A DNA stretch of 64,000 nucleotides from an uncultured Planctomycetota bacterium (GCA_964354375.1 CAYGZQ010000007.1:29230-93229), one strand, 5' to 3'. Positions 7,886 to 61,202 are shown, counted from the stretch's first letter. The notes: generated by a model not told the origin, from the sequence alone. Numbers and translations: made by a program.

Positions 7886-7944
7886 GCCGTTGTTAATCCT
7901 CCGATGTAGAGTTTATCAGCCGAAGCCCAAAAAGCTCCGGCATA

Positions 7945-17937: not shown

Positions 17938-17998
17938 CGTCCCGGGTGATTCGAGTACTCTACCCTAAGAGGTCATGCAAGAGCAATCCCCCCCCATC

Positions 17999-19342: not shown

Positions 19343-19553
19343 GACTAACCCAGCCGGAAAGCAGGCGCAACAGAAGAATCACCGCAAGGGCGCCAAGAAC
19401 ACCAGGGACACCAAGAAGACGGACAAAATGAACCTTAACAGCAGGAAAATATCTCTGAATGGGGACGAGAGGCGGCCTCATACCAGGAATCGTCGCCCGA
19501 AAGGTTGATACCCAGGCTCGCAAGCAATAGAATACCGATTCCGTTTGCTTCAG

Positions 19554-30734: not shown

Positions 30735-32384
30735 TCACTTGACGCCCCCGGCGCCATCCGCCAGCACGTAGAGAGCGGTGACGGGGGCAACCGGCGCGCC
30801 GCCCGACATCCCCATCACAGTCACGCTCACATTGCCCATCGCCCCGGGCGTGAATCGACCCATATAGAAACCGGGGCGGCCCTCGACTTCCTCGAATACT
30901 ATCGTCCCGTTAAGCGATGAATCTCGCATCGACCACGTCGCAGTCGGGGGGCTATCGAGGGGCACGAACGACTTGACCATCACGAGGACCTCGCCCGCGA
31001 ATATCGGGCTTGCCGTCACTCCCACCTGGAGATAGGAATTCGCAGATGTGCCGGATTGACTGAGCGCGCCGGCAGCGTTCAATATGCCGTACCCGTAGAA
31101 ATCGTTTACGCCATTGTCGTTTTCATCCGGACCCGCCATCGGTATCGCAGTTAACTCGATTCTCGCTCGCACATCGTCCGGGGTCAAATAGGGATAATGA
31201 CTGAGAATGAGCGCAGCCACGCCGGTAACCATCGGTGTGGCGAAACTGGTGCCGCTCGCAAGTCCGTACGGGGGACCTTCGCCGGTGTACAGATAGACTT
31301 CTCCCTCGGGCACGGTCGTCACAATATCCACACCCGGAGCCATAATGCTCAGAATATCCTCACCGTAGTTTGAGAACACGGCTTTCAGGCCGTTGTTGGC
31401 GACAGCCCCGACCCCGATGACCTCCGGAAGGGCGGCCGGATAGTAAAGGCTTTGACGGTCGATGGCAGGATCCCCGGTTTTCTTGTAGTACTGACCGGGA
31501 TTCGCGTTGCCCGCTGCGGCCACGATCACAATGCCCGCGTCGTGGGCGTCGGTCACCGCCTCCTCCTCGATACTCATAGTACCCACTCCGCCGATTGAGA
31601 GGTTGATGACATCGCAGCCCGCCACTCGGGCCTCGTCGATCCCCTCGACCTCATCGAAAATATCGCAGTCCAGAAGCGGGCCCCCACAAGCCCGGATCGG
31701 AAGCATCCTGATGTTCCAGTTTACCCCGGCGACCCCCACACCGTTGTTCCCGACCCCGCCGATAACTCCGCACACGGCAGTGCCGTGACCGCTGTCGTCC
31801 TTCACAATGTCGGGCCATTCGGGTCCTTCCCTGACATTGATGCCGGGAAGAACCAGGTTGGGGATGAGATCGGGATGCGTGGTGTCGACACCGGTATCGA
31901 TCACACCCACGAGAACACTCGCCGACCCAGTCTCGACATCCCACGCTCCGGGCACCTGCGCGACCAGCAGCTCTTCCTTCTGCAGCGAGTAGTACGGATC
32001 GTTGGGGACCCGCGATGCGCTCCGGCGATAGTTCGGATAAACCTCGGCGATGTTTGAAAAACCTCTCAGGCGCGTGATGGCCTCGAAAGGCGTGCTCCCG
32101 TCGGTGATCTTGTACCTCGCCACCGGACGGCTCGACATCGCTTTGTCGAAAACGACGCCGGGAAGGATATCCGCCGACTGCGCCACTCTGGCATCGGCGT
32201 ACGTTTTGAACTCGACTATGACTTCATCGGTGACCATCCCGTTGATGGAGTAGAGAACGGGAAGGTCCGCGTCGACAGGCACGTTTGGCGTCACCGCCTC
32301 CAGCGCCCCTGCCCCGGTCCCGATCATCGTCAGGCCCAGTGCAGCCGCCACAATCGCGAACAAAAGATGGGGACGTAATGTCAT
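30735..32384 (-). CDS. Secreted subtilisin-like serine protease (peptidase S8) with a C-terminal beta-rich extension.
   Basis: The catalytic triad contexts are VIDTGVDTTHPDL (Asp), HGTAVCGVIGG (His) and GTSFATPMVTGVAALI (Ser). The signal peptide is MTLRPHLLFAIVAAALG. The ATG at 32384 has a GAGGTG RBS. Confidence 0.85.
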   Translation of the reverse strand: MTLRPHLLFAIVAAALGLTMIGTGAGALEAVTPNVPVDADLPVLYSINGMVTDEVIVEFKTYADARVAQSADILPGVVFDKAMSSRPVARYKITDGSTPFEAITRLRGFSNIAEVYPNYRRSASRVPNDPYYSLQKEELLVAQVPGAWDVETGSASVLVGVIDTGVDTTHPDLIPNLVLPGINVREGPEWPDIVKDDSGHGTAVCGVIGGVGNNGVGVAGVNWNIRMLPIRACGGPLLDCDIFDEVEGIDEARVAGCDVINLSIGGVGTMSIEEEAVTDAHDAGIVIVAAAGNANPGQYYKKTGDPAIDRQSLYYPAALPEVIGVGAVANNGLKAVFSNYGEDILSIMAPGVDIVTTVPEGEVYLYTGEGPPYGLASGTSFATPMVTGVAALILSHYPYLTPDDVRARIELTAIPMAGPDENDNGVNDFYGYGILNAAGALSQSGTSANSYLQVGVTASPIFAGEVLVMVKSFVPLDSPPTATWSMRDSSLNGTIVFEEVEGRPGFYMGRFTPGAMGNVSVTVMGMSGGAPVAPVTALYVLADGAGGVK

Positions 32385-32595
32385 GTATGCCCACCTCAAA
32401 GGTGATAGTTCCGTCGAACATAGAATAGACTACAGAAACTGGCCAAATCTAACACCAAGACTACTACACGGGAAAACTTAACTCAAGTGTCCGCGCGCCC
32501 GTATGATTAATGTTCCACCTTACGACCCAAAAATGAACCTCTGGGATCAAAGCAAGGGGGCCGTTGAAAAAGTCTGAAATGGTGACTTTCCGCAC

Positions 32596-43324: not shown

Positions 43325-44686
43325 ATGGCTCCCAAAGGTAATGAGACCAAACGAATACTATTGCTCGGCGCAGGGCTGGTCACTCGTCCGCTGGTTGAGT
43401 ATCTGCTTGCCATACCCGAGTTCCGGCTCACGATAGCCACTCGTACGGCATCCAAAGCTGACGCGCTTATCGGGGGAAACCCCCGCGGCTCTTCCGAGCA
43501 TTTCGATATCGAGAGGAATCCGGGAGCGATTGACGATCTGGTCGCGAGTCACGACCTGGTTATCAGCCTGCTTCCCGCCATGCATCATCCGACCGTGGCG
43601 AAGGCGGCGATCAGGCACGGGAAAACGATGGTCACCACCAGCTACGTCAGCCCCGCGATGAAAGAGCTCGATTCCGCCGCCAGGGACGCAGGCATCCTTA
43701 TCCTGAACGAGATCGGTCTCGATCCCGGCATCGACCACATGTCGGCGATGAAGATAATCCATGCGGTTGCAGACGGCGGGGGCAAGGTCACTTCGTTCCG
43801 ATCGTACTGCGGCGGACTTCCCGCTCCCGAGGCCAACACCAATCCCTGGGGATACAAGTTCTCGTGGAGTCCGCGAGGTGTCGTGCTCGCCGCAAGAAAC
43901 ACGGCGAAATATCTGGAGGACGGAAAAGTCGTGCAGATTCCCGGCGAGGATCTCTTCGACCATTTCCACATCGTCAAGCTGAACGAGCTCGACGACCCGT
44001 ACGAGGCCTACGCTAATCGCGACAGCATGCCTTACCTGGAGCTGTACGGCCTGAAGGACGCAAAGACGATGTATCGCGGCACGCTCCGCAACATCGGACA
44101 CTGCGTCACGTGGAAGAAGCTGGCGGACCTGGGACTTTTCAGCATCGATATAATGAAGGGTCTCGGCGGCCTGACCTATCGCGGCTTCATCGCCAGACTA
44201 GCCGGCGTTCCTGACGACGCGAATTTCGAGAAAGCGCTCACCCGGAAGCTGGGTCTCCCGGACGATCCTCCCGTTTTGGAGAAATGGCGATGGCTGGGTC
44301 TTCTTGACGAGACCCCGGTCCCTGCCGACGAATCGAGCCCCCTGGACATCCTTGTTGCCGCTTTCCTCGAGAAGCTTCAGTATGAGCCCGGCGAGCGAGA
44401 CATGGTGGCGCTCCATCACATTTTCATCGCCGAGTACCCGGGCAGAAAAGAGAAAATCACGTCGACCCTCATCGACTTCGGAATTCCCAACGGAGATACG
44501 TCCATGGCTCGGACAGTGGGACTCCCCGCAGCGGTCGCGACAAAGCTGGTGCTCCAGGGCAAGATCAATCTGACCGGCGTACACATCCCGGTGATTCCCG
44601 AGATATACAATCCGGTCCTCGACGAGCTGGAAGAGCTTGGCATCAAATTCACAGAGCGAACCACGCAAGAGAGCGGTCAGCCATGA
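43325..44686 (+). CDS. Saccharopine dehydrogenase (L-glutamate-forming, LYS9 type), also called saccharopine reductase.
   Basis: An AAGGAGAGAGAAG RBS precedes the start. ILLLGAGLVTRPLVEYL is a Rossmann fold, and the Sacchrp_dh C-terminal region follows (GLDPGIDHM, ...RNIGHCVTW...). Confidence 0.75.
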   Translation: MAPKGNETKRILLLGAGLVTRPLVEYLLAIPEFRLTIATRTASKADALIGGNPRGSSEHFDIERNPGAIDDLVASHDLVISLLPAMHHPTVAKAAIRHGKTMVTTSYVSPAMKELDSAARDAGILILNEIGLDPGIDHMSAMKIIHAVADGGGKVTSFRSYCGGLPAPEANTNPWGYKFSWSPRGVVLAARNTAKYLEDGKVVQIPGEDLFDHFHIVKLNELDDPYEAYANRDSMPYLELYGLKDAKTMYRGTLRNIGHCVTWKKLADLGLFSIDIMKGLGGLTYRGFIARLAGVPDDANFEKALTRKLGLPDDPPVLEKWRWLGLLDETPVPADESSPLDILVAAFLEKLQYEPGERDMVALHHIFIAEYPGRKEKITSTLIDFGIPNGDTSMARTVGLPAAVATKLVLQGKINLTGVHIPVIPEIYNPVLDELEELGIKFTERTTQESGQP

Positions 44687-45153
44687 CGAAGAAATCCCCG
44701 AAGAAAGCCGGACGCCTCAATCTGCTCCTTGTCAACGGTCCGTTGCTGGGGGCCTTAGGGAAGCGCTCGCCCGAGATCTACGGGACCGACACGCTCAAAG
44801 ATATCGAGTCCTGGATCGTGGCAAGAGCTGCGGAATTGGGCGCGGACGTGAAGTGCTTTCAGTCCGAGTCCGAGGGCGACATTCTGAAGTTCCTGCTGGA
44901 CAACGCCGATGCGGTCGACGGGGTGATCATCAATCCGGGCGCGTACGCGCACTATTCCATTGCCCTGAGAGATTGCCTGGAATACCTGCCTTGCCCGGTT
45001 GTCGAGGTGCACCTGACTAATCTCTACGGTCGTGAGCAATTCAGGCACGAGTCGGTGACCGGCGCGGTTTGCGACGGCGTGGTAATGGGTCTTGGAAAAC
45101 AGGGTTATCTTGCCGCCCTGATGTATCTGCTGAACAAGCTCCAAGAGAATTGA
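44683..45153 (+). CDS. aroQ: Type II 3-dehydroquinate dehydratase.
   Basis: LLLVNGPLLGALGKR, ...NPGAYAHYS... and ...HLTNLYGRE... are present. The ATG overlaps the upstream stop (ATGA). Confidence 0.85.
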   Translation: MTKKSPKKAGRLNLLLVNGPLLGALGKRSPEIYGTDTLKDIESWIVARAAELGADVKCFQSESEGDILKFLLDNADAVDGVIINPGAYAHYSIALRDCLEYLPCPVVEVHLTNLYGREQFRHESVTGAVCDGVVMGLGKQGYLAALMYLLNKLQEN

Positions 45154-45183: not shown

Positions 45184-47961
45184 TCAGTCAGGAAGCCAGG
45201 TCAGCGGATCGGGCCCGCCATACGCACCCATGTCCGATCCGTCATGACCCGTCCCCTTGCAGGGCGAATCGGGCTGCAGGCGGTAATCGCCCATCGCGGG
45301 ATTGATGAACTTCGGGTTTTCGTAGGTGAAACCGGTGCCCTCGACGACCTCGTGGACCCCGGCATAGAACGCATGGCCGACATTGTAGGCGCACGAGTAA
45401 TCCACCGGCAGCTCCGAAGCCCACATGCCCAGGTATGCCCATCGCCAACCCATCATTCCGGCAGTCAGATCGGTCACTATAAGGTCGCGATAGATCACGC
45501 CGGACGGGTCGGTATTGAAATCAGTTGCCTCGAATGCATAAATCCACGCCGGCCCTTTGATTCCGCTGACCGTGTTGTGTTCAAGCGTCATGTTCTCGGC
45601 GTCATAGATGTCGATGCCCCACGTCCAGCCGGTATCGCCCAGGTTGTTGTTGATGTCGAAAACAAGGTTGTTCCTGACCGTCGAACCCTGGCAGTAGGAT
45701 ATTTCCACTGCAGATGTCCACTGGGTCTCGACAAAAGGTTCCGAGTATGTGATATGGCCTACGACATTCTTCGCCACCAGACCTGTGGCCCCCGCGTCTG
45801 CAACCGAAAGGACATACATCCCGCCGGGGGAGCCGTACGTGATGTTAAGCAGCACACAGTTCGTCACTGTTGCCCCCGTTCCGCTCACGTTGATGAAGCC
45901 ATTGGCCACCTTGTGATATCCGTTGACCCGAACGTCATTGACCACCACTCCATCGCCTCCCCATTGCCCCCCGACCGCATACTCGCAAGTGTTTCCGCCC
46001 GGATTGTCGATGAATTCGATGTCGTCCACTCGAAGGTCGTGGCCCATTCCGACATGAATCCCGTCCGGCGCAATGCCGTTTGACGGATCGTACAGGCACC
46101 TGGGCTGAGCTCTGAAATGCCTGACCGTGGCGTTCTGGACTGCATTGATGCGCACCATGTCCTCAGTCGAGCCCTCAGCGGTAGTCAGCAGCGGAGCCGG
46201 ATCGGACCAGCCTTCGACAACGATGTCCGAGAACGATATCTCTACGTTCTCCTCGTACACGCCGTCCTTCACAAGGACCCATCTCTGGCCGCAATCGTTG
46301 TTGGAGTTGTCGATGCCCTGCTGAATCGTGGGCCAGGGATGGTCGAAGCTGCCGTCCGCAGACAGTGGATCCGCGTCGTCATCGACCCATGTCGGTCCGC
46401 CTATCGAAAGGGTCAGCGGATCGTCCAGGGTATCCGTCAAGGCCTCATCATCGGTGACGCGGAGGTCCACCGTGTACGATCCCGAGTCTGCGAAAGCCTT
46501 TGACGGATTCACATCGGTACCTGAATCGTACGGATCGCCGTAGACACCATCACCATCGAAATCCCATTCATACTTCACGATGGTGCCGCCCGCAGGATCA
46601 TAGGACCCCGATCCGTCAAACTCGATCACGTCGCCCGGACAATGCGGCGGCGGAGTGACAATCTCGGCCACGGCAACGGGCGCATCCCCCTGCACTCCCG
46701 GACCCACGCTTACGGACGCGGCAAGATACGACGCGAGATTCCCGTCAGGAAACGCAAATCCGGGAATTCCGGAGTCATAGGTCGACGGAAATGCGCTCTC
46801 GATAACCACCAGCACCGGGACCTCCCCCTGCCCTGTCGGATCCACCTGGGGAACCTCCAGCAGGAAGGTCGCCGACTTCTCGTCCTGGCTCACCATGGCC
46901 GATTGAAGGGCCATGGGATCGAAGCTGGCAAGACCGCCGGTCGTGATAAGGCCGTCCGGCGTCTCGAGATGGATCGCGGCTATCTCCGCAAGCACTCCCG
47001 CGGGCTGCTGCGGACCCTGATGATCGAACACCCTCACCAGCAGCCTCATCGTGCCGCCCTTGTTGTTCGGGTCCGTGTAGAACATGTCCGACTGATCGGC
47101 TGCGCTGAAGGCGTACGCTTCGGCGCAGTTGGCTGACAACGGAAAATCATCCGGCACATCCACGGGCGGGTCCGGATCAGAAAGGTCCCAGCTCGCGATA
47201 ACGGCGTACTGGAAGCGGTACTTGGGCGAGCCGCCGATCATGGGGAACTGGAGCTCGAAACGTCGAGCCAGCGTATCGGCGCATCTGAACATCCCGCGCG
47301 GATTCGGGCATGCTGGGTCGCTGAAGAACCCGACCATGTCATCTTGAGCGCCGAGACCCTCGCAGTAACACTTGTATGGATTCAGGGTCGCCGAAAAATC
47401 CGTGCCGGGAAGCCCAAATGCGCCATTGGTGAAACCGAACATCTTCCCGTACGACGTGAATTCCATCGGGTTGAACCATCTTGTCATGCCGTCGGCATTC
47501 AGAAGCCGGACCGATTCCTCACCACCATACAGGATATTCGCGTCCGCGATTCCCGATATCGATCCGTTCGCGATCACCGCCCCACGGACATCGAAACCCG
47601 TGAACCTGTCAAGGCCCGGAAACGGATGACCGATCGTGACGTCAACGACCACGTAACCGGTCGCCCAGTCCGTCGACGAATCGACCGCTATCGAAATGAG
47701 ATTACTCGGCGCAACAGGCGGCTGGAGAAACCTCACCACATTGCATGTGAAATCGGCGCTTCGAAGCTGCGCAATCTCGGCCGTGCCCGAGACCGGATCG
47801 AGGAAGACGTCCCACACACCCCATAGGCCGGTCTTTCCCGACGCAGACGCTCGATCCGTTCCCGCAGTCGTCTGAGGCGAAATCGGATCGCCCCCGCCCG
47901 CGCAACCGAGCGCAACTGCTGCCAGCAAAGCCAGTCCCAGAAAAAGGACAATTCTCTTCAT
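45184..47961 (-). CDS. Giant lipoprotein, family member D: conserved N-module, a PKD domain and a right-handed beta-helix.
   Basis: The ATG at 47961 has a GGGAG RBS and the lipobox is ALGCAG. The N-module motifs are TGLWGVWDV, ADGMTRWFNP, SATLNPYKCYCEGLG, FQYAVIASW and VPDDFPLSAN. The PKD motif is GSGSYDPAGGTIVKYEWDFDGDG. Repetitive beta-helix turns follow (NCVLLNITYG...). Confidence 0.8.
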   Translation of the reverse strand: MKRIVLFLGLALLAAVALGCAGGGDPISPQTTAGTDRASASGKTGLWGVWDVFLDPVSGTAEIAQLRSADFTCNVVRFLQPPVAPSNLISIAVDSSTDWATGYVVVDVTIGHPFPGLDRFTGFDVRGAVIANGSISGIADANILYGGEESVRLLNADGMTRWFNPMEFTSYGKMFGFTNGAFGLPGTDFSATLNPYKCYCEGLGAQDDMVGFFSDPACPNPRGMFRCADTLARRFELQFPMIGGSPKYRFQYAVIASWDLSDPDPPVDVPDDFPLSANCAEAYAFSAADQSDMFYTDPNNKGGTMRLLVRVFDHQGPQQPAGVLAEIAAIHLETPDGLITTGGLASFDPMALQSAMVSQDEKSATFLLEVPQVDPTGQGEVPVLVVIESAFPSTYDSGIPGFAFPDGNLASYLAASVSVGPGVQGDAPVAVAEIVTPPPHCPGDVIEFDGSGSYDPAGGTIVKYEWDFDGDGVYGDPYDSGTDVNPSKAFADSGSYTVDLRVTDDEALTDTLDDPLTLSIGGPTWVDDDADPLSADGSFDHPWPTIQQGIDNSNNDCGQRWVLVKDGVYEENVEISFSDIVVEGWSDPAPLLTTAEGSTEDMVRINAVQNATVRHFRAQPRCLYDPSNGIAPDGIHVGMGHDLRVDDIEFIDNPGGNTCEYAVGGQWGGDGVVVNDVRVNGYHKVANGFINVSGTGATVTNCVLLNITYGSPGGMYVLSVADAGATGLVAKNVVGHITYSEPFVETQWTSAVEISYCQGSTVRNNLVFDINNNLGDTGWTWGIDIYDAENMTLEHNTVSGIKGPAWIYAFEATDFNTDPSGVIYRDLIVTDLTAGMMGWRWAYLGMWASELPVDYSCAYNVGHAFYAGVHEVVEGTGFTYENPKFINPAMGDYRLQPDSPCKGTGHDGSDMGAYGGPDPLTWLPD

Positions 47962-48011
47962 AACGGCAACTCCCATGACCCTGAATAGATAACCTGATGC
48001 AATATGGAGCA

Positions 48012-50777
48012 TCACTGGTACGCGCGAACGTAGCTCGATCCGGCCACCACGAGATAGTCCCCCGCCAGAGCGGCGCCGCCTCGCTGAGTCTCGCCGGTGG
48101 GAATCGACCTGACGATGCTTCCGTTGGACGCATCCAGGAAGTAGACCGTCCCGTTAAGCTCAGGAGCGATCACGATGCCGTTCGGATAGCTGGGTGTGAC
48201 CGTGGCCACAATCATCGCGTCGAAGTATCCGGACATCGGGGAATTCCACTTCAAGCTCGCATAGTCGCCGTTGTCCGTAATACAGTGCACCGGGCCGGAG
48301 AACGCACACGCGAAATACATATCGTCCCCCAGCTTCGATACGCCGCCGTTGATGGGGTTGGCAGGGGTCGCCTGGTACTTCCAGACAAGGTCGCCCGCAG
48401 AATAGGCGCCCTGGTCCTCGACGGCGACGCAGTACACCTCGCCCGCATAGCTCGCGAAATAGGCCCTGCCGTTGTCGATCAGCGGATTGTTGTAGTGATC
48501 GACGGTGATAGTCGTGTATCCTGAGTGCCAGGACCAGTCGACCGTCCCGCTATCGATGTCGACACAATCCAGGTAGTTCTCATGCGTACCCCAGTTGTAT
48601 CCCACAGCGTAGGCCTTGCCGTCCTTCGCCGACACACCCGCCTCGAATGCAGCCATTATCGGCACCTCGTGAATCAGAGTTCCCGTCTGGGCATTGAGGA
48701 TGTACATTGCGGCTTCCAGACGGCCCTTGGCAATGACCTTGTCCTCGTAGACCGTCAACTGCGTGCCGAGCCAGTTCTGATCGCTCGGACTGGTATCGTC
48801 GTACGTCCAGAGCGGGGTGGGATTGTAGCCGCTCGAATTCGCATTGAAGCAATAAATCTTGTCGCCTCCCACGATGAGACGCTCGGTCCCGTCGCCCGCA
48901 TCGTAAAACGCGAATCCCGGCTGACACCTTTGATAATAGCCCGACGGGTCTATCTGCGCGGTCCAGAGCTGGGCGCCGGTCGTGAGATTGTACCCAAGCA
49001 CAAGAGTGCTCGTTCCGGCGTAGAACGCCGTATTGCTGGTGAAGAATATCTTGTTCTCGGCAACCACCGGAGTGCAGTATTTGTAGGCTCCGGATGCCGT
49101 CGTTGCGTAGACCTGGTTCAGACTGAGAGGATCCGCCGTCGTGGCCGACGGATTGCGCCCGAGATGGGACGAGTTGTACATGATGCATTCCCACCAGTAC
49201 GGCCACGTCGACTCCGTCACCTCGAACCCGTCCGGAAGCTCACCGTAAAGAGTTGTCGGGTTGGTCACGCGAACATCGTAGACCCCCACTACGGCGCCGG
49301 CGGACGCGTTCAGGTCGAGATCACACGTGATGAGCGTCCCGGCGGACGCGACTTCACCCGTGGCCTCGATGACCACACCGGGATCATCGTTCTTGATAAG
49401 CGTCACCTGCGCGCCGTCCAGGAAGTAGTTCCCCGTCACCTCGACTGCGGTCAGCACCTTTCCGATATCGCCGCTGTCGGGATCGATGGCCGTGACTATC
49501 GGGGCAACGTCGGTCGTTACCGAAACATCCGTCAGAAGATAAGAGGCCAGAGCCCCTTCGGGGAACGGGAATCCGGGAAATCCCGAATCGTAACTGTTCG
49601 GATCCTTGCTCTCAACAACGACCAACACCGGGTAGCCGCCCGTGCCGTACGGATCAACTTCCTCCACGCTGAGAAGCCAGGTCGCGCTGATGTCGTCCTC
49701 AGCATATAACGCTGCGGACAGCTCCGCTCCCTCGAACGTGGCGATGCCGCCCGTAGTGATGAGTCCGTCAGGAGTCTCGATATGGATTGCGCCGATTTCG
49801 TCGGCGACCCCGCTCGTTGTGCCCGCTCCCTGATGGTCAAACACGCGAACCATGAGGCCGAGCGTTCCGCCCGACGTGTCCTCGTCGACGTAGTACATGT
49901 CGGACTGGTCCGCGGCCGAGAAGCAGTAAGCCTCCTGGCAGTTCGCCGAGAGCGGGAAATCGTCGGGGATCTCATAGGGTTGATCTCCCGCGGGCTGGTC
50001 CCAGCTCGCGATCACTGCGTACTGGAATCGATACTGCGGCACCCCTCCGACCGTCGGAAACTGAAGGTCGTACCTTCGCCTGAGAGTGTTCCCGGCGGAG
50101 AAGAGCCCCCTTGGGTTGATGCAGGAAGGGTCGGCAAAGAACTGCGCGACATCATCCTGGCTTTCGAGGCCGTCGCAGAAGTACTTGTAGCCGTTCAGAG
50201 TGGCGTTGAAATCGTAATTCGGCGCGCCCATTTTCCCGAGAGTGAAACCGAAGATAGTGCCGTACTTGGTGAACTCGGACGGGTTGAACCAGCGCGTTAG
50301 GCCGTCCGCGTTGAGCACCCTCAAATCCTCCTCGCCCGCGTACAGGATGTTGCTGTCCGCTATCCCCTGGATCGTGCCGTTGCCGATGCATACGCCGCGC
50401 ACGTCGAACCCGGTGTACATGTCCAGTCCCGGAAACGGGTGCGTGAAAATCACGTCCACAAGCACGTGTCCGGTGATGAAATCGGTCAGCGGATCGATAT
50501 CGATCCCCATCAGGTTCTTGGGAGAGATCGGCGGTTGAAGGAACTGAGTCACGTTGCACGTGAACTGGACTCCGCGAACCGGCACTATTTCAGCCGTCCA
50601 CGTGGTGGGATCCAATGCAACGTCCCAGATCCCCCAGAGATGGGTGCCGCCGATCTCCGCCGCCAGCGGTCTTTCAACCGTAAGATCAGGGGCGGTGGGG
50701 GTATGAGAGGAGCTTGAGCACGCGAGCGCGATCACTGATGCCAGTGCCAGAACAAGGGAAACCAACCTGCCAGCCAT
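48012..50777 (-). CDS. Giant lipoprotein, family member E: conserved N-module, an IPT/TIG domain and a PQQ-like beta-propeller.
   Basis: The ATG at 50777 has a GGAGGT RBS and the lipobox is IALAC. The N-module is near-identical in pattern to D (THLWGIWDV, ADGLTRWFNP, NATLNGYKYFCDGL, FQYAVIASW, IPDDFPLSAN). The TIG motif is PIVTAIDPDSG...VTGNYF. There are repeated Trp-containing propeller blades. Its stop overlaps the 5' region of D. Confidence 0.8.
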   Translation of the reverse strand: MAGRLVSLVLALASVIALACSSSSHTPTAPDLTVERPLAAEIGGTHLWGIWDVALDPTTWTAEIVPVRGVQFTCNVTQFLQPPISPKNLMGIDIDPLTDFITGHVLVDVIFTHPFPGLDMYTGFDVRGVCIGNGTIQGIADSNILYAGEEDLRVLNADGLTRWFNPSEFTKYGTIFGFTLGKMGAPNYDFNATLNGYKYFCDGLESQDDVAQFFADPSCINPRGLFSAGNTLRRRYDLQFPTVGGVPQYRFQYAVIASWDQPAGDQPYEIPDDFPLSANCQEAYCFSAADQSDMYYVDEDTSGGTLGLMVRVFDHQGAGTTSGVADEIGAIHIETPDGLITTGGIATFEGAELSAALYAEDDISATWLLSVEEVDPYGTGGYPVLVVVESKDPNSYDSGFPGFPFPEGALASYLLTDVSVTTDVAPIVTAIDPDSGDIGKVLTAVEVTGNYFLDGAQVTLIKNDDPGVVIEATGEVASAGTLITCDLDLNASAGAVVGVYDVRVTNPTTLYGELPDGFEVTESTWPYWWECIMYNSSHLGRNPSATTADPLSLNQVYATTASGAYKYCTPVVAENKIFFTSNTAFYAGTSTLVLGYNLTTGAQLWTAQIDPSGYYQRCQPGFAFYDAGDGTERLIVGGDKIYCFNANSSGYNPTPLWTYDDTSPSDQNWLGTQLTVYEDKVIAKGRLEAAMYILNAQTGTLIHEVPIMAAFEAGVSAKDGKAYAVGYNWGTHENYLDCVDIDSGTVDWSWHSGYTTITVDHYNNPLIDNGRAYFASYAGEVYCVAVEDQGAYSAGDLVWKYQATPANPINGGVSKLGDDMYFACAFSGPVHCITDNGDYASLKWNSPMSGYFDAMIVATVTPSYPNGIVIAPELNGTVYFLDASNGSIVRSIPTGETQRGGAALAGDYLVVAGSSYVRAYQ

Positions 50778-50915
50778 GGTGGACCTCCGAGATTTGAACA
50801 GCCATTCACTTAGATGTGTCGTGCATAGGAAATAATAGAATAACACAGCCGGGAAAACAAGAAAGCGGCGCATTGAGAGTCGCGCCGCTGGGGGAGAGCT
50901 GGTTTGAGCAATACG

Positions 50916-51278
50916 CTATCGTTTCGCGCCATCCGGCTCGCGGTCCAGAAGAATCCACTCCAGTTTCGACATAACGATAATCTGCGCGGGAATGGGCTCC
51001 AGCCCGGAGACGCGCATCTCGATTCCATCGCGGGCAAGCTCTCGATGCCATTCGAGAAGCGTGCGCAGTCCGCTGATGCTGAGATACCTGCACTTGCTCA
51101 TGTCGAGAACGACCTCTTTCGCGCCGGCTCTCGCAACAGTCCTGGACATTCTCGCGAACGCGCTTGCCATCCGATCGGTGCATTCCTCGTAGTCCCAGAC
51201 GAGCGTGATTCGTCCGTCCCGGCCCGGCCCGGACGGTTGCGGAGACTTCGACTCGACTTGCCGCACACGATCGATCAT
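50916..51278 (-). CDS. STAS-domain protein (anti-sigma-factor antagonist, SpoIIAA-like).
   Basis: VVLDMSKCRYLSISGLRTLLEWHRELARDGIEMRVSGLEP matches the STAS core. It lies immediately upstream of, and co-directional with, lipoprotein E. Confidence 0.65.
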   Translation of the reverse strand: MIDRVRQVESKSPQPSGPGRDGRITLVWDYEECTDRMASAFARMSRTVARAGAKEVVLDMSKCRYLSISGLRTLLEWHRELARDGIEMRVSGLEPIPAQIIVMSKLEWILLDREPDGAKR

Positions 51279-51437
51279 GGTCAGTATATCGACCGCACGG
51301 GAAATTACTTTAGATATGTATCCATTAAGTCAGCTTAATACCCATAAAGCCGGGTGAGCATCGAGCGATCGCGTCTCTGAAGCCGAGAGGTCCGCTCCTT
51401 GACCGCCAAATATCGAAATGGTAGATTTACATACCGC

Positions 51438-51514
51438 GGCGGTGTAGCTCAGATGGTTAGAGCATGCGGCTCATACCCGCAGTGTCACTGGTTCGAGTCC
51501 AGTCACCGCCACCA
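51438..51514 (+). tRNA. tRNA-Met (anticodon CAT), elongator-like; it could instead be tRNA-Ile2/lysidine.
   Basis: The 7-bp acceptor pairs ggcggtg with caccgcc. The D-arm is tagctcagatggttagagc. The anticodon loop is ctCATac. The T-arm is GGTTCGAGTCC. The CCA end is encoded. There is no GGG:CCC anticodon stem and pair 1-72 is G:C, so it is not an initiator. Confidence 0.85.
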
Positions 51515-51554: not shown

Positions 51555-51916
51555 GTCTTGCCGACTTCCGTCCCATCTTCCTTCTCAGTCTGTCCTCGAT
51601 CAGCATCGCAAACGGAGCGGCCTGCGACAACAAGCGCCGGGCCTCAGCTTCGATGATAAGCCCGGCCACATTGTCGGGCGGACGGGCTCGCCCCCTCCAG
51701 ATTCGGTCGGAATGGAGATCCGACTCGGCATTCCCCCATCCGCAGCCGGCCCCGGAGGCGGGTTGTCAGATTGATTTGAGATCGCTCGCCAAAGCCGAAG
51801 CGTCATAAACAGGATTTAATTCCAGATCTTTCGAACTCCCGGTCGGATTGACCAAACCTCTTGCCGGTGATCCTTGTCTCATGTTTCAAGGGGAAAAAAC
51901 CGCATGGAGGCGCAGT

Positions 51917-54262
51917 GTGATTGAATTTCTCAATCGATGTTTCTGCTATTGCCTTTGCAGCGCAGCCGTCGTTGCGATCGCGCTGATGTCCGTCGGCTGC
52001 AACTCTGAGGGAGATCCGTCATCGCCCGCGTCGGGAAGACTGACGGACAAATTAAGCACATGCCGTCCGCAACCGTCTTCGGACGTCGAAAAGAGCCAGC
52101 AGACGGCAAACTGGGACACGATCGGAAACAGGCCGCTTTACGCCGACGGCGAAATCCTGATTGTGCTGAACGACGACGCCAATCCGTCCGATGTTTCGCT
52201 CATAAATACGGGCACGCTTCAATTCCGCGAGACGATCCCCTGCCGATGGGGCACCATCTACCGCATGAAGATCGCGGACGGAAGCAGTGTGGAGGAGACG
52301 GTAAAGTTGTTTGCATCGGATCCTGATGTGAGAATTGCCCAGCCGAATTATCTCTATTACTTCTGCGAAGCGCCGTATGTTCCGGATGACCCGATGTGGG
52401 CATACCAGAGCGATCCCGCCGACCCAAAGGACAGCATTTACGATCAATGGGGGCCCTCGATGGTAGGCGCGCCCGTCGTCTGGAACGACACCAATGGCTC
52501 CGCCGGTATGATCATTGCCGTCCTGGACACGGGAGTAAGGCATGACCACGAGGACCTGCACGACAACCTCTGGACAAATACGGACGAGATTCCGGACAAC
52601 GGCGTCGATGATGACGCTAACGGGTATATCGATGACGACTGGGGATGGAATTTCGCTGACGAAAACAACAATCCCGACGATACATCGCTGATCGATTATC
52701 ACGGGACCGCAGTCGCGGGCGTGGCGGCGTCGGTCCAGGATAATTTCAAAGGAGTCTCCGGAATAGCCCCGGGAACGAAAATCATGGCCCTGAAGGTAAG
52801 TTTCGATTCCACAGCCGCCCTCGAGTCTTCCGTTGCCGAGGCCCTGAACTACGCAGTGGAAAATGGCGCCACGATCGCGAGCATGTCGTTTCTGGCGTAC
52901 GTACACTCGACAATCATGTACGAGGCATGCACGAACGCATGGAATGACGGCAACGGCATCAACCTTGTCGCTGCGATCGGCAATGACAACGGAGTCTACT
53001 ATGCAAGTCCGAACGGATTCGAATGCGTAATCTCAACCGGTGGAACGTGCCCATGGACCAAGAGCGGTCAACCGAGAGACGAAAAGCGGATCAAGAAAAA
53101 TGAGGACGGTTACCCGTGGGGCTCCAATTACGGGGGTAATCTCTCGGTCATGGCCTTTGCCGCCCAATACAGCACGCCGGACGGAGAGCATACCGATTCC
53201 TACTGGGACGGGTTCAATCATATCCTGTTCTGGGGGACCTCCTGCACCGCTCCCTTCGCATCCGGCATTCTTGCTCTTATCAGGTCGTATCATCCGACGG
53301 AATCACCCGCCTGGGCGAGGACCAGGCTGGAGGAAACCTGCGACGACCTGAATGTCCCGGGCTATGATGTCCAGACCGGAAACGGACGGGTCAATGCCAT
53401 AAGGGCAGTCTACGGGGCCGACAGATATGTCGAGTTCACTGATCCCGACGGCTTCGTACAGATTCCGACACCAGACGCTCAGGTGTTCGAAACGATCAAT
53501 GATCGTCCGGGCAGCCCATATCACGACGTCGAGGACCTCTACAAAGTGACGATGACGCACACCGGCTCTCTTATCCTGAGCTTGGATATTTTCACATGGG
53601 GTGAAAACCTGGACCTTGCCGTGTACTCGGATCCGGGAATGTCGGAATTGATGGGTGAGTCTGCCGTCGAAAACCACTGCGGCAGCAGTTTCGAGAAGCT
53701 TCTCCTGCATGTGAGCGCGGGAGAGGATTACTACATAAGGATATTCTCTCCGGGCATCGGCAATTCGACAGCCTATGGACTGGCGGTTCACAACGGCACA
53801 GACAGTCTGTCGGTCACCGGCGAAAGCATCTCGCCCGCAGTCATCAACGAACAGACTGAGGACGCACCAATCCTGAAAATCATGCTTGAGATCGGCAGCC
53901 AGGCCACTCTTGACGAGATCATTCTCAATTTGCACGGATCTCATTCGTATCAGAACTGGACCTACGGGAGGCTCTACAAGGACCAGGACGGCGAGGGGTC
54001 ACTGGATGACGGCGACATTCTTCTGGACGGGAAAATCCCGCAGGTCGGAAATCGGATCAGGTTCGAAAGCCTGGGGACAGCCTGGGACTATACCAAGCCG
54101 CTGATCCTGTTTTTCACGGCTGACCTCACTCCGACTGCCGAAGAGTCGACGCTGCACTTTTCGCTTGAATCATACAAGGATGTAAGCACGGAGGAGAGCA
54201 TTTCGGCTGAATACATCCAGTTTCCGATCAGGTCGAACGACATTCTCGTCGGACCCGGCTAG
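51917..54262 (+). CDS. Subtilisin-like serine protease (S8), a lipoprotein or secreted protein with long C-terminal beta-rich domains.
   Basis: The triad contexts are AVLDTGVRHDHEDL (Asp), HGTAVAGVAAS (His) and GTSCTAPFASGILALI (Ser). A GGAGG RBS lies 6 nt before the in-frame GTG at 51917. Alternative starts are the ATG at 51881 and the TTG at 51848. The lipobox-like sequence is MSVGC. Confidence 0.8.
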   Translation: MIEFLNRCFCYCLCSAAVVAIALMSVGCNSEGDPSSPASGRLTDKLSTCRPQPSSDVEKSQQTANWDTIGNRPLYADGEILIVLNDDANPSDVSLINTGTLQFRETIPCRWGTIYRMKIADGSSVEETVKLFASDPDVRIAQPNYLYYFCEAPYVPDDPMWAYQSDPADPKDSIYDQWGPSMVGAPVVWNDTNGSAGMIIAVLDTGVRHDHEDLHDNLWTNTDEIPDNGVDDDANGYIDDDWGWNFADENNNPDDTSLIDYHGTAVAGVAASVQDNFKGVSGIAPGTKIMALKVSFDSTAALESSVAEALNYAVENGATIASMSFLAYVHSTIMYEACTNAWNDGNGINLVAAIGNDNGVYYASPNGFECVISTGGTCPWTKSGQPRDEKRIKKNEDGYPWGSNYGGNLSVMAFAAQYSTPDGEHTDSYWDGFNHILFWGTSCTAPFASGILALIRSYHPTESPAWARTRLEETCDDLNVPGYDVQTGNGRVNAIRAVYGADRYVEFTDPDGFVQIPTPDAQVFETINDRPGSPYHDVEDLYKVTMTHTGSLILSLDIFTWGENLDLAVYSDPGMSELMGESAVENHCGSSFEKLLLHVSAGEDYYIRIFSPGIGNSTAYGLAVHNGTDSLSVTGESISPAVINEQTEDAPILKIMLEIGSQATLDEIILNLHGSHSYQNWTYGRLYKDQDGEGSLDDGDILLDGKIPQVGNRIRFESLGTAWDYTKPLILFFTADLTPTAEESTLHFSLESYKDVSTEESISAEYIQFPIRSNDILVGPG

Positions 54263-56960: not shown

Positions 56961-57689
56961 TCAGTTCAGAGGCACGTTCGGCGTCTTGCCCTCGACGTAA
57001 TTCGCGAAGAATTCGTTGTCGAGACCCAGGCCGAACTCGTAGTCCGTGTAGGCGGTCGTTGTCGTGGCGAGCAGGTTGCCGTCCGGGTCCTTCGCCTCGG
57101 CCACCGTCTCCAGCAGAAGGATGAATTTGTCCGCCGGACCGTATGTATAGCTGATGGTCGTGTTGAGGTTCTCGAATTCCCTGGTGGCGTGCGTCGCCAG
57201 CGTCCTCACGTGCCTGAAATCGTCCTTTGCCACGTAGTAGGTCCTGTTGTACTGGGCGAACGCAGGGTCCCTCGGAGTCGTGCGGATCACGTAGCACGCA
57301 ATGTCATTGACCTCAGCATCCCGCTGGCGAACGAGGTCCACGCTCTCGAGAAGAACAACGAGCAGGTTGTCATTGAAATAGAAAGCGGGCTGATCTTCGA
57401 TGAGCTGCATCTGCGTCACCGGCTCCATGAAGTAGAGGTCCTTCTCAAGAATCTCTTTCGCATCGACGCCTGCGCGGACGGTGGTCTCGGCCAGCTTGCA
57501 GCGGTAATCATTGATGCCGGGGTCCGCGGCAAGCTGATCGCCCTCGTAGTGGATCATCCCGTCGAAGATCTCGAGCGCGGAGAGCTGCGGGGCGCCAGCA
57601 CCGGATGCGGCCCCGGCGACGATCACAAGGAACACCGAAACAAATGCCATGAGGCGTGTCATTCTTCTTCTCCTCAGTGTGGTTGTCAA
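56961..57689 (-). CDS. Secreted LolA-like / outer-membrane-lipoprotein-sorting-fold protein, hypothetical.
   Basis: A signal peptide, and a size and beta-rich composition compatible with the LolA-like family. The assignment is weak. Confidence 0.4.
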   Translation of the reverse strand: MTTTLRRRRMTRLMAFVSVFLVIVAGAASGAGAPQLSALEIFDGMIHYEGDQLAADPGINDYRCKLAETTVRAGVDAKEILEKDLYFMEPVTQMQLIEDQPAFYFNDNLLVVLLESVDLVRQRDAEVNDIACYVIRTTPRDPAFAQYNRTYYVAKDDFRHVRTLATHATREFENLNTTISYTYGPADKFILLLETVAEAKDPDGNLLATTTTAYTDYEFGLGLDNEFFANYVEGKTPNVPLN

Positions 57690-57770: not shown

Positions 57771-60700
57771 CTAGCCGGGTTCATCCGTCATCACCTTTTC
57801 CCTGACGATCTCGCCCGACGGCTCCTGGCCTTCCCAGACCCCGGTGAGCTCGTGAATACGCGTCCTCACTTTCTGGTAAGTCTCGCTGTTGGGGCTGTAC
57901 AGTGACTGAGTCATCAGTTGACGGTAGTAGCTGATCGCCCGGACGTTGTCTCCCAGCTTCTCATAGATTCGACCCAGGAGAAAATACGCGTAATCGAACG
58001 GGGCCTGGTTGCGAACGTTGCCTTTCCTGTTGAACGTCTGGATATAGTTATCCCTCGCGAGCTCGTGGTATTTCGCCGAATCCTCCATGTTGCCCGATTC
58101 CTTCGAGATATCACCCAGCGATTCGTACACCTGCCCAAGCTCGTAATAGCCGTAATATACGTTCGAGGAAAGCTTGATGCAGTCCTTGAACGCCTGCTCC
58201 GCCGCCAGAAAATGGTCGATCCCGGCTTTGACTTCGTCCTTTCGGATACTCTCCGCGCCAAGCGCCTTGTGGGCTTTGCCAAGCCACAGGTAAAGCTGCC
58301 ATCTGATCTGTGGCTTCTCCTTCAGCCACGCGTCGACAACCAGCGCCCGCTCAGCCCAGAAAATGATCTCATCGTAACGGAATTCCTCCTCAAGAAGTCG
58401 AAGGAGGTCCTTGTAGTATTCCACTTTGACCGGGTAGTACTGTGCGGCAGTCATGTAGGCCTGGATCGCCCGCCCGCGGCTGGCGACGGCGTCCTCATCC
58501 AGCTTCTTCGCCTGCTCGGTCAGCTTGTCTATCTGGCTCTGAATGGCCGCACGCTCCTCGTCCGATTTCGCGTCCGCCAACTGGGTCCGGTAGTTCCCGG
58601 TTTCCGTTCGCATCCTTGCGGCAAGCTCGCCCGCCAGGCTTCTCCTTGCCTCGTAGCCCATCGCGAGGGCATAGTGCGTGTCGGACTGAGGATACAGAAG
58701 CTGCCCTTCCTCGAGATGCCTCGTCCCGAGGACCACATCCTGGTATGTGTTCTTCTTGATGAGCGAGAAGCCGTTGAAAAATTCCGCCCTGCCGTTGGTC
58801 GGATCGAGCTGGTATGCCTTCCAGAAGAAATCGGAAGCGACCTGTCCGATGTACTGCTTTCTCTCCGGAGAGGTGTCCGAATCGATGTTTCGGAGAGCCG
58901 CGATCCCCTTCACCACCAGGTACTGGCTCTTGAAATTGATAACCTGCGTGTACACCCCCCACAGGCTCAGCAGAAATGCAAGTGTGATGAGAGGTATCAC
59001 TACGAAGGGTCGGAACTTCGTCCGGACATTCATGTAGAGGGCGGGCTCATAAGACACTGCTTTTGCGGTCGGCGCCACGACAGGTCCCGACTGGTCCTTC
59101 TTTCTCTTCTTCTTCCTGAACGGCTCGGGCGCCTGCGCCGCGGCGGCAAGGGCCTCCGCTTGCTGCCTCTTCTGCTGCTTCCGCAGGGCTATGTCCGCGA
59201 TCAGGAAACCCATCGCGGTGAATATCAGTCCGCCCGCCTGGATCTGATGATACGGGAAACTGAATGAACCCGATGCAAGCGAGCTTGCGGTCGCTCCCAT
59301 GACGCCGAGAGCGAAGAACTTCCGTGCCGGATCCTTCTCCTCACTCAGAAAACGATACCCCATTACAAAGAACATTATGAAAACGAGGGCATAGAAGGTT
59401 GTGCCCACGATCCCTGCCTCGACAAGCATCTGCAAATGATCGTTGTGCGCGCGGAACGTCGGAATGACATTGTGGAACCAGTCATTGAAGTTGTATGTCT
59501 CGAGGACCTCGGTCTGGTACGGAAGGTACTCCACCTCAAAGAAGCCGAATCCGCCGCCGAAAATGAGCCGCTTGGGAAAGGTCGCAGGGTCGACCAGCAT
59601 CAGGTAGGACGCTCGCCACATGGTCAGCCGGTTTCGGAAGGTCTCGTCCTGGGTGAAGTCGGTCATGCTCTTGAGGCGCTCCCAGGGACTCTGGGCGAGC
59701 GGGTTGTCCACCCCTTTCTCACGCTCGTTGAAGATCACTCCCGCCAGTACGAGCACGATGGCGAGCCCAGCGACACCCGCTACAAACCCCAGCTTGGATA
59801 GTCTCCTCGATACCACAAGCGATTCCCAAAGGAGACCGAAGACGAGCGAAGCCAGTCCGACGCAGGCCAGGAGAATGGTGACAAACAAAGTGACCCTGGA
59901 TACGTTGGTGATGCTGGTTACAGTCGCTTCCGAAAGAAAGGTGACGAAACTCTCCGAGCGCAAGGCCAGAAGCAAACCCAACGCGACCGCAAGGATGACA
60001 AGTCCCGCGATTCGCGCCACGACGCCCACCTTGGACATCCGCCTAAGCGTAAGCTCCCGCCTTCTAACCCAGAACAGGCCGAATATCACAAACGCAAGGC
60101 CGACGAAAATCCCCAGCCAACCGGCTCGGTTGTAGACCGCGATCATCTCGAATGAGTTGATCGCCAGCGTGATCCCGAGGAACACTCTCAGATTCAGCGA
60201 GTCGGACGACAGAAGGAGGCCGAGCCCGATGAACAGCGTCAGCGCCAGGTATTCGCCGTAATAGTTCGGGTTGGCGAAAAATCCCGCGAGCAGGAAATAC
60301 CGTCCAGCCGACGGAGTCTTGTAAAACCAGGGATACGCCTGTCCTGCACTGACCTCGCCCTGGGGATAGAAGCCTCCGGAATGTCCGAAAACGTTATAGG
60401 GAATATCGAAATACTTCCAGAAACCCCACAGCGTGCACACGAGCGCCGTGACCATGACCGCGATGAGCACCGCGTCCCTGCGACGCTTGTCGGGGATGTA
60501 AGCCAGGGCCAGAAGGAAACATGCTGCGAAGGCTATCCACTGAATGACGTTCTTGATCGCGGCAAGACGGTACGGGAAGAGAATCAGGGTCAGGAGCATG
60601 TATGCAGTAAACAGCAGCAGGAAAAAGCCTACGGGATTCTTCGGCACACCGGTCGGCCGTCCGATGAAATACCTCACGACGAAGTAGCACAGGAACAGGC

Positions 60701-61202
60701 ACGCGATCGCGAACCCGAGCTCCTCCTTCGGCATCAGCATGTTCCGCTCAAGCTGGTTGTAACTCACCAGCGGTGCGAAAAACTGAAACTCGATCATCAG
60801 GTAGAACGGGAGCTGGTCGAAGAAGTCCCAACGATCGCGCTCGGTACGGATGAAATGTATGACAGCCCGACCGACGACGAGAATCAGCATGCATCCTATG
60901 CCGATGGTGAACTTGTTCAGGTAGAAACCCTGGGGGGGCACGTCCGGCCAGTGCCATTTGCCCGCATAGGTCCACCAGAGGACCGCCAGCACAACCGGGT
61001 AAAAAAACAAGCGCTCGACCAGCGACTCGAACGGCTCCAGCCGCCCGAAGATGAACGGGTCGAGGTCGATTCGCAGAAGGTAGGCGACTGAGAGTATCAG
61101 AACTACCAGCAGAAATGCGGTGCCGATATGCAGCCATTCAGGTCTGGCGATGAAATTCGCCACCAGCGGCTGTACCCCGATGTTTGTGAGAAACTCGTAC
61201 AC
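57771..61202 (-). CDS. Giant polytopic membrane protein with an O-antigen-ligase (Wzy_C)-like core and C-terminal TPR repeats.
   Basis: There are 20 or more TM helices. A Wzy_C-like periplasmic loop (…HNDHLQMLVEAGIVGTTFYALVF…) is followed by a roughly 450-aa soluble TPR region (…YYELGQVYESLGD…, …YFLLGRIYEKLGDNVRAISYY…). Confidence 0.7.
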   Translation of the reverse strand: MYEFLTNIGVQPLVANFIARPEWLHIGTAFLLVVLILSVAYLLRIDLDPFIFGRLEPFESLVERLFFYPVVLAVLWWTYAGKWHWPDVPPQGFYLNKFTIGIGCMLILVVGRAVIHFIRTERDRWDFFDQLPFYLMIEFQFFAPLVSYNQLERNMLMPKEELGFAIACLFLCYFVVRYFIGRPTGVPKNPVGFFLLLFTAYMLLTLILFPYRLAAIKNVIQWIAFAACFLLALAYIPDKRRRDAVLIAVMVTALVCTLWGFWKYFDIPYNVFGHSGGFYPQGEVSAGQAYPWFYKTPSAGRYFLLAGFFANPNYYGEYLALTLFIGLGLLLSSDSLNLRVFLGITLAINSFEMIAVYNRAGWLGIFVGLAFVIFGLFWVRRRELTLRRMSKVGVVARIAGLVILAVALGLLLALRSESFVTFLSEATVTSITNVSRVTLFVTILLACVGLASLVFGLLWESLVVSRRLSKLGFVAGVAGLAIVLVLAGVIFNEREKGVDNPLAQSPWERLKSMTDFTQDETFRNRLTMWRASYLMLVDPATFPKRLIFGGGFGFFEVEYLPYQTEVLETYNFNDWFHNVIPTFRAHNDHLQMLVEAGIVGTTFYALVFIMFFVMGYRFLSEEKDPARKFFALGVMGATASSLASGSFSFPYHQIQAGGLIFTAMGFLIADIALRKQQKRQQAEALAAAAQAPEPFRKKKRKKDQSGPVVAPTAKAVSYEPALYMNVRTKFRPFVVIPLITLAFLLSLWGVYTQVINFKSQYLVVKGIAALRNIDSDTSPERKQYIGQVASDFFWKAYQLDPTNGRAEFFNGFSLIKKNTYQDVVLGTRHLEEGQLLYPQSDTHYALAMGYEARRSLAGELAARMRTETGNYRTQLADAKSDEERAAIQSQIDKLTEQAKKLDEDAVASRGRAIQAYMTAAQYYPVKVEYYKDLLRLLEEEFRYDEIIFWAERALVVDAWLKEKPQIRWQLYLWLGKAHKALGAESIRKDEVKAGIDHFLAAEQAFKDCIKLSSNVYYGYYELGQVYESLGDISKESGNMEDSAKYHELARDNYIQTFNRKGNVRNQAPFDYAYFLLGRIYEKLGDNVRAISYYRQLMTQSLYSPNSETYQKVRTRIHELTGVWEGQEPSGEIVREKVMTDEPG

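Follow-up and report, generated by a model that had tools for sequence, protein, structure and literature searches.

A STAS gene and its neighbouring lipoprotein array in an uncultured Planctomycetota bacterium: probably two transcription units on a conserved genomic backbone

Here, we describe a minus-strand locus (positions 45184-51278) in a stretch of 64,000 nucleotides from an uncultured Planctomycetota bacterium (GCA_964354375.1 CAYGZQ010000007.1:29230-93229), a stretch that we call the window and whose own coordinates are used throughout. At this locus a gene for a STAS protein is followed by genes for two large paralogous lipoproteins, E and then D. We propose, with a probability of about 0.6, that these genes make up two independent transcription units set on a conserved backbone of tRNA-Met, STAS, lipoprotein array and convergent aroQ. 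The domains, gene starts, paralogy and candidate signals, together with their conservation, are reported as observed. The features of the locus are the following.

44683..45153, plus strand: aroQ, type II dehydroquinase (PF01220, E-value 1.3e-48), convergent with D
45184..47961, minus strand: lipoprotein D, 925 aa (shorter start, Shine-Dalgarno sequence, lipobox)
48012..50777, minus strand: lipoprotein E, 921 aa (shorter start, Shine-Dalgarno sequence, lipobox)
50803..50817, minus strand: conserved leader motif ACATCTAAGTGAATG, in the predicted 5' untranslated region of the first array gene
50832..50860, minus strand: candidate sigma-70-like promoter of the lipoprotein array (conserved position and spacing)
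50854..50889, minus strand: intrinsic-terminator-like element after STAS (terminator scan)
50916..51278, minus strand: STAS gene, 120 aa (Pfam)
51286..51312, minus strand: candidate sigma-28 (FliA/SigD)-type promoter of STAS (consensus and conservation)
51438..51514, plus strand: tRNA-Met (CAT) (ARAGORN; Rfam RF00005, 69 bits)
51848-54262, plus strand: subtilase, upstream of STAS and divergent from it

The minus strand thus holds three real genes in the order STAS, E and D, and on this common strand and order we agree with the initial annotation of this DNA. The 42-bp gap between STAS and E and the overlap of E with D that it also described do not hold, because they came from the use of maximal open reading frames (ORFs). 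The likely start of E is the ATG at 50777, which is preceded by GGAGG (50788-50784) and followed by MAGRLVSLVLALASVIALAC, a lipoprotein signal peptide, with the stop at 48014-48012; the likely start of D is the ATG at 47961, which is preceded by GGGAG (47974-47970) and followed by a second lipoprotein signal peptide, MKRIVLFLGLALLAAVALGC. With these starts, 138 nt separate STAS from E and 50 nt separate E from D, and there is no overlap. On a syntenic JGI contig from a 90%-identical relative (L003), an independent gene caller arrived at the same E and D models (922 and 925 aa). An upstream start of E at ATG 50873 was considered and rejected, as it lies inside the terminator hairpin and reads ACG in L003. 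The tRNA and the subtilase gene, which had been placed downstream of the three genes, are both on the plus strand, upstream of STAS and divergent from it; a second subtilase gene is found elsewhere in the window (30735-32399, minus strand). The tRNA gene has a candidate sigma-70-like promoter of its own (TTGACC-17-TAGATT at 51399-51427) and is the conserved neighbour on the upstream side of STAS, and aroQ is the conserved boundary downstream of the array, being the same neighbour in the related loci L003, L006, L108 and L105.

The STAS ORF matches PF01740 (E-value 3.4e-10, 40.1 bits against a cut-off of 22.6) and PF13466, STAS_2 (E-value 1.5e-9), and scores 33 bits against TIGR00377, under the cut-off of 53. 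Its AlphaFold2 (AF2) model, predicted from an alignment of database homologues (predicted local distance difference test score (pLDDT) 82), has a minimal STAS fold, the ~20 aa at the N-terminus being disordered. The top Foldseek matches of this model are SpoIIAA, TM1442 and RsbV (probability 1.0; template modelling (TM) scores up to 0.67/0.73), with a root-mean-square deviation of 2.0 A to TM1442, and one MlaB chain (7ch8_L) is also among the matches, though not among the best. The protein has no signal peptide and hence should be cytoplasmic. It is a stand-alone SpoIIAA-type protein, as had been called from the sequence. A fragment of a sulphate-transporter (SulP) C-terminus, which the initial annotation named as what would overturn that call, was looked for and rejected: no transporter domain lies upstream, where 158 nt hold the candidate promoter and the divergent tRNA-Met, and the gene has a putative promoter and terminator of its own.

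Profile searches gave 19 relatives of this STAS protein, to which genome and metagenome loci add others, and these relatives are conserved stand-alone ORFs of 98-151 aa. The hallmarks of the subfamily are W[DE]x[DE]xC and LDMSxC[RK][YF]LS[VI]xG, and its 20-member alignment has two near-invariant cysteines, C33 and C63. When STAS and TM1442 are aligned with phmmer, YLSISG falls opposite YMDSAG, which puts an isoleucine at the serine of the DSAG loop; we take this serine to be the phosphorylated Ser59 of TM1442. The canonical phosphoserine position is I or V in 20/20 members of the subfamily, and the positions beside it vary (S/A/T/G and S/N). Among the window ORFs scanned there is no gene for an RsbW/SpoIIAB kinase, a PP2C phosphatase, a sigma factor or FlgM, and none for RsbW/SpoIIAB or another anti-sigma factor, or for PP2C, among the genes flanking STAS in five relatives (L003, L105, L107, L108 and L109). 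Because the phosphoserine is absent and no such kinase, phosphatase, sigma factor or FlgM gene occurs among those window ORFs, classical kinase-driven partner switching is not supported for this protein, and nor is the earlier suggestion that the lipoproteins are under partner-switching control. Other genes of these kinds were seen in related genomes. In L107 a Hanks-type Ser/Thr kinase of 391 aa (6259-7434) is encoded just upstream of tRNA-Met and STAS, and three metagenome-assembled genomes (MAGs) carry adjacent pairs of canonical full-length STAS genes (L061 7595-8349, L067 5277-5973 and L083 5022-5785, all on the minus strand; PF01740 E-values 1e-17 to 1e-21), which are convergent to a distant E-type paralogue and unrelated to the STAS of our locus. 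STAS genes seem to be plentiful in this lineage.

Looking for a promoter upstream of STAS, a check suggested in the initial annotation, we found a candidate of the sigma-28 type that is conserved among orthologues. It consists of a -35 element TAAAGTAA (51312-51305), an 11-nt spacer and a -10 element GTCGATAT (51293-51286), and 7 nt separate this -10 octamer from the ATG at 51278. The published sigma-28 consensus is TAAAGTTT-n11-GCCGATAA (PMC2859248), which is matched at 16/16 positions in L086 and at 15/16 in L005, L006 and L109. An exact search with TAAAGTWW-N12-YCGATAW has a single match in the window (0.31 being expected by chance with up to 2 mismatches), and this exact pattern occurs once in each STAS locus (12/110 loci) and nowhere else in the ~1 Mb of fetched loci; a looser expression, TAAA-N14-16-GCCGATA[AT], adds just two matches, in L002 and L027, which are unrelated. 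The motif is kept while the intergenic DNA around it is not conserved. In the open complex at Pseudomonas aeruginosa fliC, the -10 octamer spans positions -15 to -8 (PMC12784957). The position of the octamer 7 nt before the ATG therefore predicts that the STAS mRNA is leaderless and starts at the A of the ATG, in line with which no Shine-Dalgarno sequence precedes STAS in the window. The ATG follows the -10 element by 7-8 nt in 9/10 STAS orthologues, and in L105/L106 the leader of STAS is longer and a Shine-Dalgarno sequence precedes the gene.

Downstream of STAS, a hairpin with a 9-bp GC-rich stem, AGCGGCGCG/TGCGCCGCT (50889-50864), begins 26 nt past the stop codon and is followed by the T-tract TTCTTGTTTT. 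The window hairpin has a minimum free energy of -16.2 kcal/mol (z = -3.6). In nine distinct sequences (the window and eight others) there is a hairpin with a T-tract at this place, the stems differing from one another (-12 to -25 kcal/mol; z from -2.1 to -7.6). The candidate promoter of E overlaps the terminator, its -35 element TTGTTT (50860-50855) lying within the T-tract and its -10 element TATTAT (50837-50832) following after a 17-nt spacer, and the form TTGnnn-17-TAT(T/C)AT is kept in the window, L003, L005, L006, L009, L086, L087, L107 and L109. Taken together, the three transcription signals recur in the orthologous loci of 8-10 related metagenomic genomes. Since the conserved hairpin and T-tract and a distinct promoter lie in the 138-nt gap, STAS and E appear to belong to separate units, and the signals suggest a monocistronic STAS and a promoter of its own for E (and probably D). 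The earlier picture, in which STAS heads an operon, is not borne out by this arrangement of a terminator-like element in nine sequences, a putative promoter after it and a promoter of a different (sigma-28) class at STAS. In the 50-nt gap between E and D the terminator scan found only a weak hairpin, and the corresponding gaps in relatives are 24-87 nt; E and D are probably co-transcribed.

Between the candidate promoter and E lies the leader motif, which has the general form ACATCT(A/T)AGT(G/T)AATG and is found solely after the STAS terminator (in the window, L003, L005 and L109), irrespective of which array gene comes first. Its positions in L005 and L109 are 755 and 800, respectively. Part of the motif, ATCTAAGT, resembles ATCTAAAGT of the sigma-28 -35 region of STAS. 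The E leader has no Rfam match and no conserved RNA fold. In two relatives (L109 495-725 and L110 670-900) three tandem repeats of ~46 nt (GTCGCGGTTCTGAAAGAGTGTGAAAGAGTCCGCTCCATGACT) occupy the space between the STAS stop and the terminator, where they are called as a 76-aa ORF.

The arrangement of the locus in relatives is as follows.

L003: STAS-E-D
L009/L108: STAS-E-D-aroQ
L006: STAS-E-aroQ
L087: STAS-E, after which the contig ends
L005 and L109: STAS-X-E-D, X being a diverged PKD/beta-helix paralogue
L107: STAS-E'-E-D
L105/L106: STAS abutting convergent aroQ, then saccharopine dehydrogenase and AlaDH genes; no lipoprotein gene

Across species, the array between STAS and aroQ holds 0-3 genes (one in L006, two in the window and L108, three in L005, L107 and L109). 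At its empty extreme, in L105/L106 (8001-8807), the STAS protein is 53% identical and a gap of 9 nt separates STAS from aroQ. In 9/9 loci whose sequence reaches far enough upstream, a divergent tRNA-Met stands beside STAS. What stays constant is therefore the pair of tRNA-Met and STAS, and the array between STAS and aroQ is variable. Neither of the two closest N-module matches with long contigs (L001 and L002) has a STAS gene, and the link between STAS and the lipoproteins is therefore specific to this locus. Synteny accounts for their adjacency no less well than function does.

Both lipoproteins begin with a signal peptide and a lipobox (VIALAC in E, VALGC in D), followed by an N-terminal module of ~420 aa, the N-module, which in E covers about 50777-49509. 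In E there follow an IPT/TIG-like domain and a PQQ/BamB-like beta-propeller (PF13360, E-value 1.2e-10), and in D a PKD domain (PF18911, PKD_4; E-value 8.6e-14, 51.8 bits against a cut-off of 27) and a right-handed beta-helix-like C-terminus. The initial annotation had given D a PKD domain with a beta-helix and E a TIG domain with a propeller; the PKD domain and the propeller are well matched, and the other two matches are below threshold (Beta_helix, 21.4 bits against 25.9; IPT/TIG, E-value 0.0098, 16.3 bits against 20.9). An identification of E as BamB was rejected, its score against TIGR03300 (28.6 bits) lying far under the cut-off of 285.2 and the type of propeller being all that is common to the two. 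Cys20 of the lipobox is invariant in a 54-member alignment, and E and D are predicted Sec/Lsp-type lipoproteins. Judging from their domain content, both probably work in the envelope or at the surface, in binding or processing polymers.

A tblastn search of the window with these lipoproteins finds exactly five paralogues, A to E, with the N-module common to all. The three not yet listed, each assigned by tblastn, translation and lipobox, are these.

9175-12630, minus strand: paralogue A
12670-16137, minus strand: paralogue B, in tandem with A
22216-24537, minus strand: paralogue C, likely start ATG 24537 (longer ORF 22216-24639)

The pairwise identities and tree of the five N-modules, proposed as a check in the initial annotation, show that, within the window, D and E are more alike than either is to any other paralogue, as it had claimed. 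Their N-modules are 54-55% identical by tblastn and 58% identical over 411 trimmed columns, against 30-36% to A, B and C (C being 33-36% identical to the others by tblastn); A and B share 44% identity along their whole length, and every other pair besides E/D lies at 30-36%. Of the two peptides that the same annotation reported in both proteins, FQYAVIASW is indeed common to E and D, and IPDDFPLSANC is found in E, D reading VPDDFPLSANC. A supposed further "giant" paralogue (17973-21305, minus strand, 1110 aa) was rejected as a shadow ORF with a low-complexity, Arg/Gly/Pro-rich translation and no family match; the real gene opposite it is probably 19545-21740 (plus strand), which has a weak phosphodiesterase match.

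Is the duplication that gave rise to E and D a recent one, as had been supposed? E has orthologues of the same architecture in L003, L005, L006, L009/L108, L107 and L109, and D has orthologues in L003, L008, L009/L108, L107 and L109. A neighbour-joining tree of N-modules places E among its orthologues (62% identity) and D among its own (60%), E and D being 58% identical to each other, and the C-terminal architectures of both are kept across species at 46-57% identity. Because the tree groups E with E and D with D, and because the C-terminal architectures are conserved, the sequences place the duplication before the species split: both it and the difference in domains are older than these species.

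The N-module belongs to a large family. A profile search returned 2,763 clusters at 50% identity (E-value at most 1e-3), 1,399 of them with E-values of at most 1e-30, and the module is N-terminal in 150/150 hits listed. More than 510 copies were found by a genome scan in a few MAGs that bear the label Planctomycetota or "bacterium", with at least 32 distinct genes in one MAG, and a lipoprotein signal peptide or lipobox is detectable in 122/145 N-module regions. The C-termini among 54 members include PKD (13), PQQ propeller (11), LVIVD (6), beta-helix (2) and SBBP (2), so that the pairing of one N-module with varied C-terminal domains, seen by the initial annotation in the window, is a feature of the family at large. 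The module is predicted by AF2 with confidence (pLDDT 86, predicted TM score 0.84) as an all-beta structure; it is matched by no Pfam or NCBIfam model, a profile search found no relative among PDB sequences, and a Foldseek search of the PDB with the model returned noise only (TM at most 0.2). Its invariant polar residues (H113, D125, D158, R223, R234, Y253, N279 and E282) suggest a binding or catalytic site. A k-mer search of 115 regions upstream of family genes revealed no family-wide motif beyond generic TATAAT-like and GGAGG elements, both of which other family members likewise have upstream.

Elsewhere in the window there is a giant Pkinase-AAA_16-TPR protein (25546-29073, plus strand). 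Directly downstream of paralogue A lies an adjacent pair of zinc-ribbon proteins (7028-9108, minus strand), one AIM24-like (7028-7885) and the other TMEM43/GIDE-like (7945-9108). A weak LolA-like protein (56961-57689, minus strand; E-value 5.9e-4, below cut-off) adjoins a 1143-aa O-antigen-ligase (Wzy_C) plus TPR protein (57771-61202, minus strand).

How, then, might this locus work? We propose that STAS forms the first unit, transcribed alone from the sigma-28 (FliA)-type promoter into a leaderless mRNA that would end at the intrinsic terminator, and a promoter of this type would place STAS in the late flagellar/motility regulon. The second unit would be driven by the sigma-70-like promoter, with its -35 element in the terminator T-tract, and would comprise E and then, 50 nt on, D. 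Between species the array would grow and shrink, and tRNA-Met and STAS would remain. As to what the protein does, the likeliest role that we can suggest, tentatively and by analogy, is that STAS may bind an anti-sigma factor or a similar partner independently of phosphorylation, with HsbA as the nearest precedent.

Several points weigh against two independent units of this kind. The E promoter has 8/12 consensus positions, which is under the scan threshold, and the window's own sigma-28 element has 12/16, its spacer being exact at 11 nt. We infer the promoters and the terminator, and with them their use in vivo, from consensus and conservation only, and the lipoprotein functions are all guessed from domain content. 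The flagellar genes seen in the fetched loci are FliK and FlhB-like only, in L001 (a related contig), and FliA, FlgM and the same motif before flagellin genes are putative in the lineage. It is also possible that the terminator is leaky and lets some transcription read through from STAS to E. Finally, STAS is followed by an N-module gene in 8/9 species-level loci, and the terminator-promoter-leader cassette accompanies STAS whatever the first array gene is, both of which would fit a functional link too.

Such a link is central to the initial annotation, which saw STAS and the array as one functional module with STAS controlling the expression or export of E and D; the hairpin would then be a leaky terminator or attenuator within an operon. 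Consistent with this is that STAS comes directly before one to three N-module genes in the window, L003, L005, L006, L087, L009/L108, L107 and L109, that terminator, promoter and leader motif are kept together with STAS, and that the leader motif is like the -35 region of STAS. We nonetheless disfavour functional coupling and consider this explanation unlikely, as L105/L106 keep STAS with the array lost or never present, in ~0.8 Mb from related loci there are ~140 further N-module genes that lack this STAS, and the flanking tRNA-Met and aroQ are conserved too, such that plain synteny accounts for the adjacency. In addition, the two promoter classes have a conserved strong hairpin between them, the STAS protein is cytoplasmic in prediction and E and D exported, and the canonical phosphoserine is absent with no kinase or phosphatase partner nearby.

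We hold it quite unlikely that the locus reflects plain synteny with a STAS protein unrelated to motility, the motif upstream serving another sigma factor or being no promoter at all, and the protein assisting, for example, an ABC transporter in the manner of MlaB or acting in a stress partner-switch encoded elsewhere in the genome. The many roles of STAS proteins, an MlaB chain among the fold matches, the other canonical STAS pairs of the lineage, a Hanks-type kinase encoded upstream in L107 and the lack of any flagellar regulator seen near STAS all agree with that account. It is opposed by the motif itself, which fits the two octamers of sigma-28 promoters and has their 11-nt spacer exactly, lies at the exact distance expected for a start at the ATG, is conserved amid unconserved intergenic DNA and is essentially unique in ~1 Mb, and also by the top fold matches, which are SpoIIAA and TM1442 and not MlaB. 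Slightly less likely still, in our view, is that the conserved cassette from the sigma-28 promoter to the leader motif is a motility-linked switch tying the surface-lipoprotein array to the swimming or attached state, in which sigma-28 transcription into the terminator might occlude or modulate the overlapping lipoprotein promoter, or STAS might be a phosphorylation-independent antagonist of a FlgM-like anti-sigma factor, possibly redox-sensitive through C33 and C63, the near-invariant pair of cysteines on the face that would bind the partner.

With two transcription units as the preferred reading, what had been an operon is more likely a pair of units with different sigma-factor signals, and the gene models are corrected. 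The STAS subfamily is apparently in the sigma-28 regulon and lacks the usual phospho-switch; if true, this would be a variation on HsbA/FlgM-type control. The N-module, predicted with confidence and matching nothing in Pfam, NCBIfam or solved structures, is a candidate for a domain definition, and its family matters for understanding the envelope in this uncultured lineage, the MAGs of which are unclassified or carry the label Planctomycetota.

Of the systems known, the one closest to the proposed role of STAS is HsbA of Pseudomonas aeruginosa, a STAS anti-sigma antagonist that binds and sequesters FlgM (the anti-sigma-28 factor) and so releases FliA (PMC5085249). Both are stand-alone STAS proteins tied to a sigma-28 circuit, in our case putatively, through the sigma-28-type promoter of the STAS gene. 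However, the switch in HsbA is the phosphorylation of Ser56 by way of HsbR, and its gene lies beside hsbR and hptB, whereas the STAS protein described here has I or V at the canonical phosphoserine and no adjacent kinase or phosphatase, and FlgM is only a putative partner. SpoIIAA, RsbV and TM1442 share with it the fold, the size and the single-domain architecture. It differs from them in lacking the first beta-strand (the Pfam match begins at profile position 30) and the DS[ST]G phosphoserine, in its two near-invariant cysteines, in its sub-cut-off TIGR00377 score and in having no cognate RsbW/SpoIIAB nearby. The candidate STAS promoter is like class 3 (sigma-28/FliA/SigD) flagellar promoters in both octamers, in the 11-nt spacer and in the distance to the predicted start, but STAS is not among the known genes of flagella or chemotaxis, its transcript is predicted to be leaderless and its dependence on FliA is putative.

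For the lipoproteins the nearest comparisons are with BamB/PQQ propeller lipoproteins, as E is a lipoprotein whose C-terminus matches the PQQ_2/BamB family, and with PKD/beta-helix surface proteins, as D is a lipoprotein with PKD and pectin-lyase-like beta-helix domains. In E and D, unlike in either of these, such domains sit behind the ~420-aa N-module, which has no relative in Pfam, NCBIfam or the PDB. More generally, there are lineage-specific expanded lipoprotein families in which a conserved N-terminal module is combined with swapped C-terminal domains. The present family differs from them in having an N-module that is undescribed in the libraries searched, and is like them in its dozens of copies per genome, its frequent tandem arrays and its variable C-termini (PKD, PQQ propeller, LVIVD, SBBP and beta-helix).

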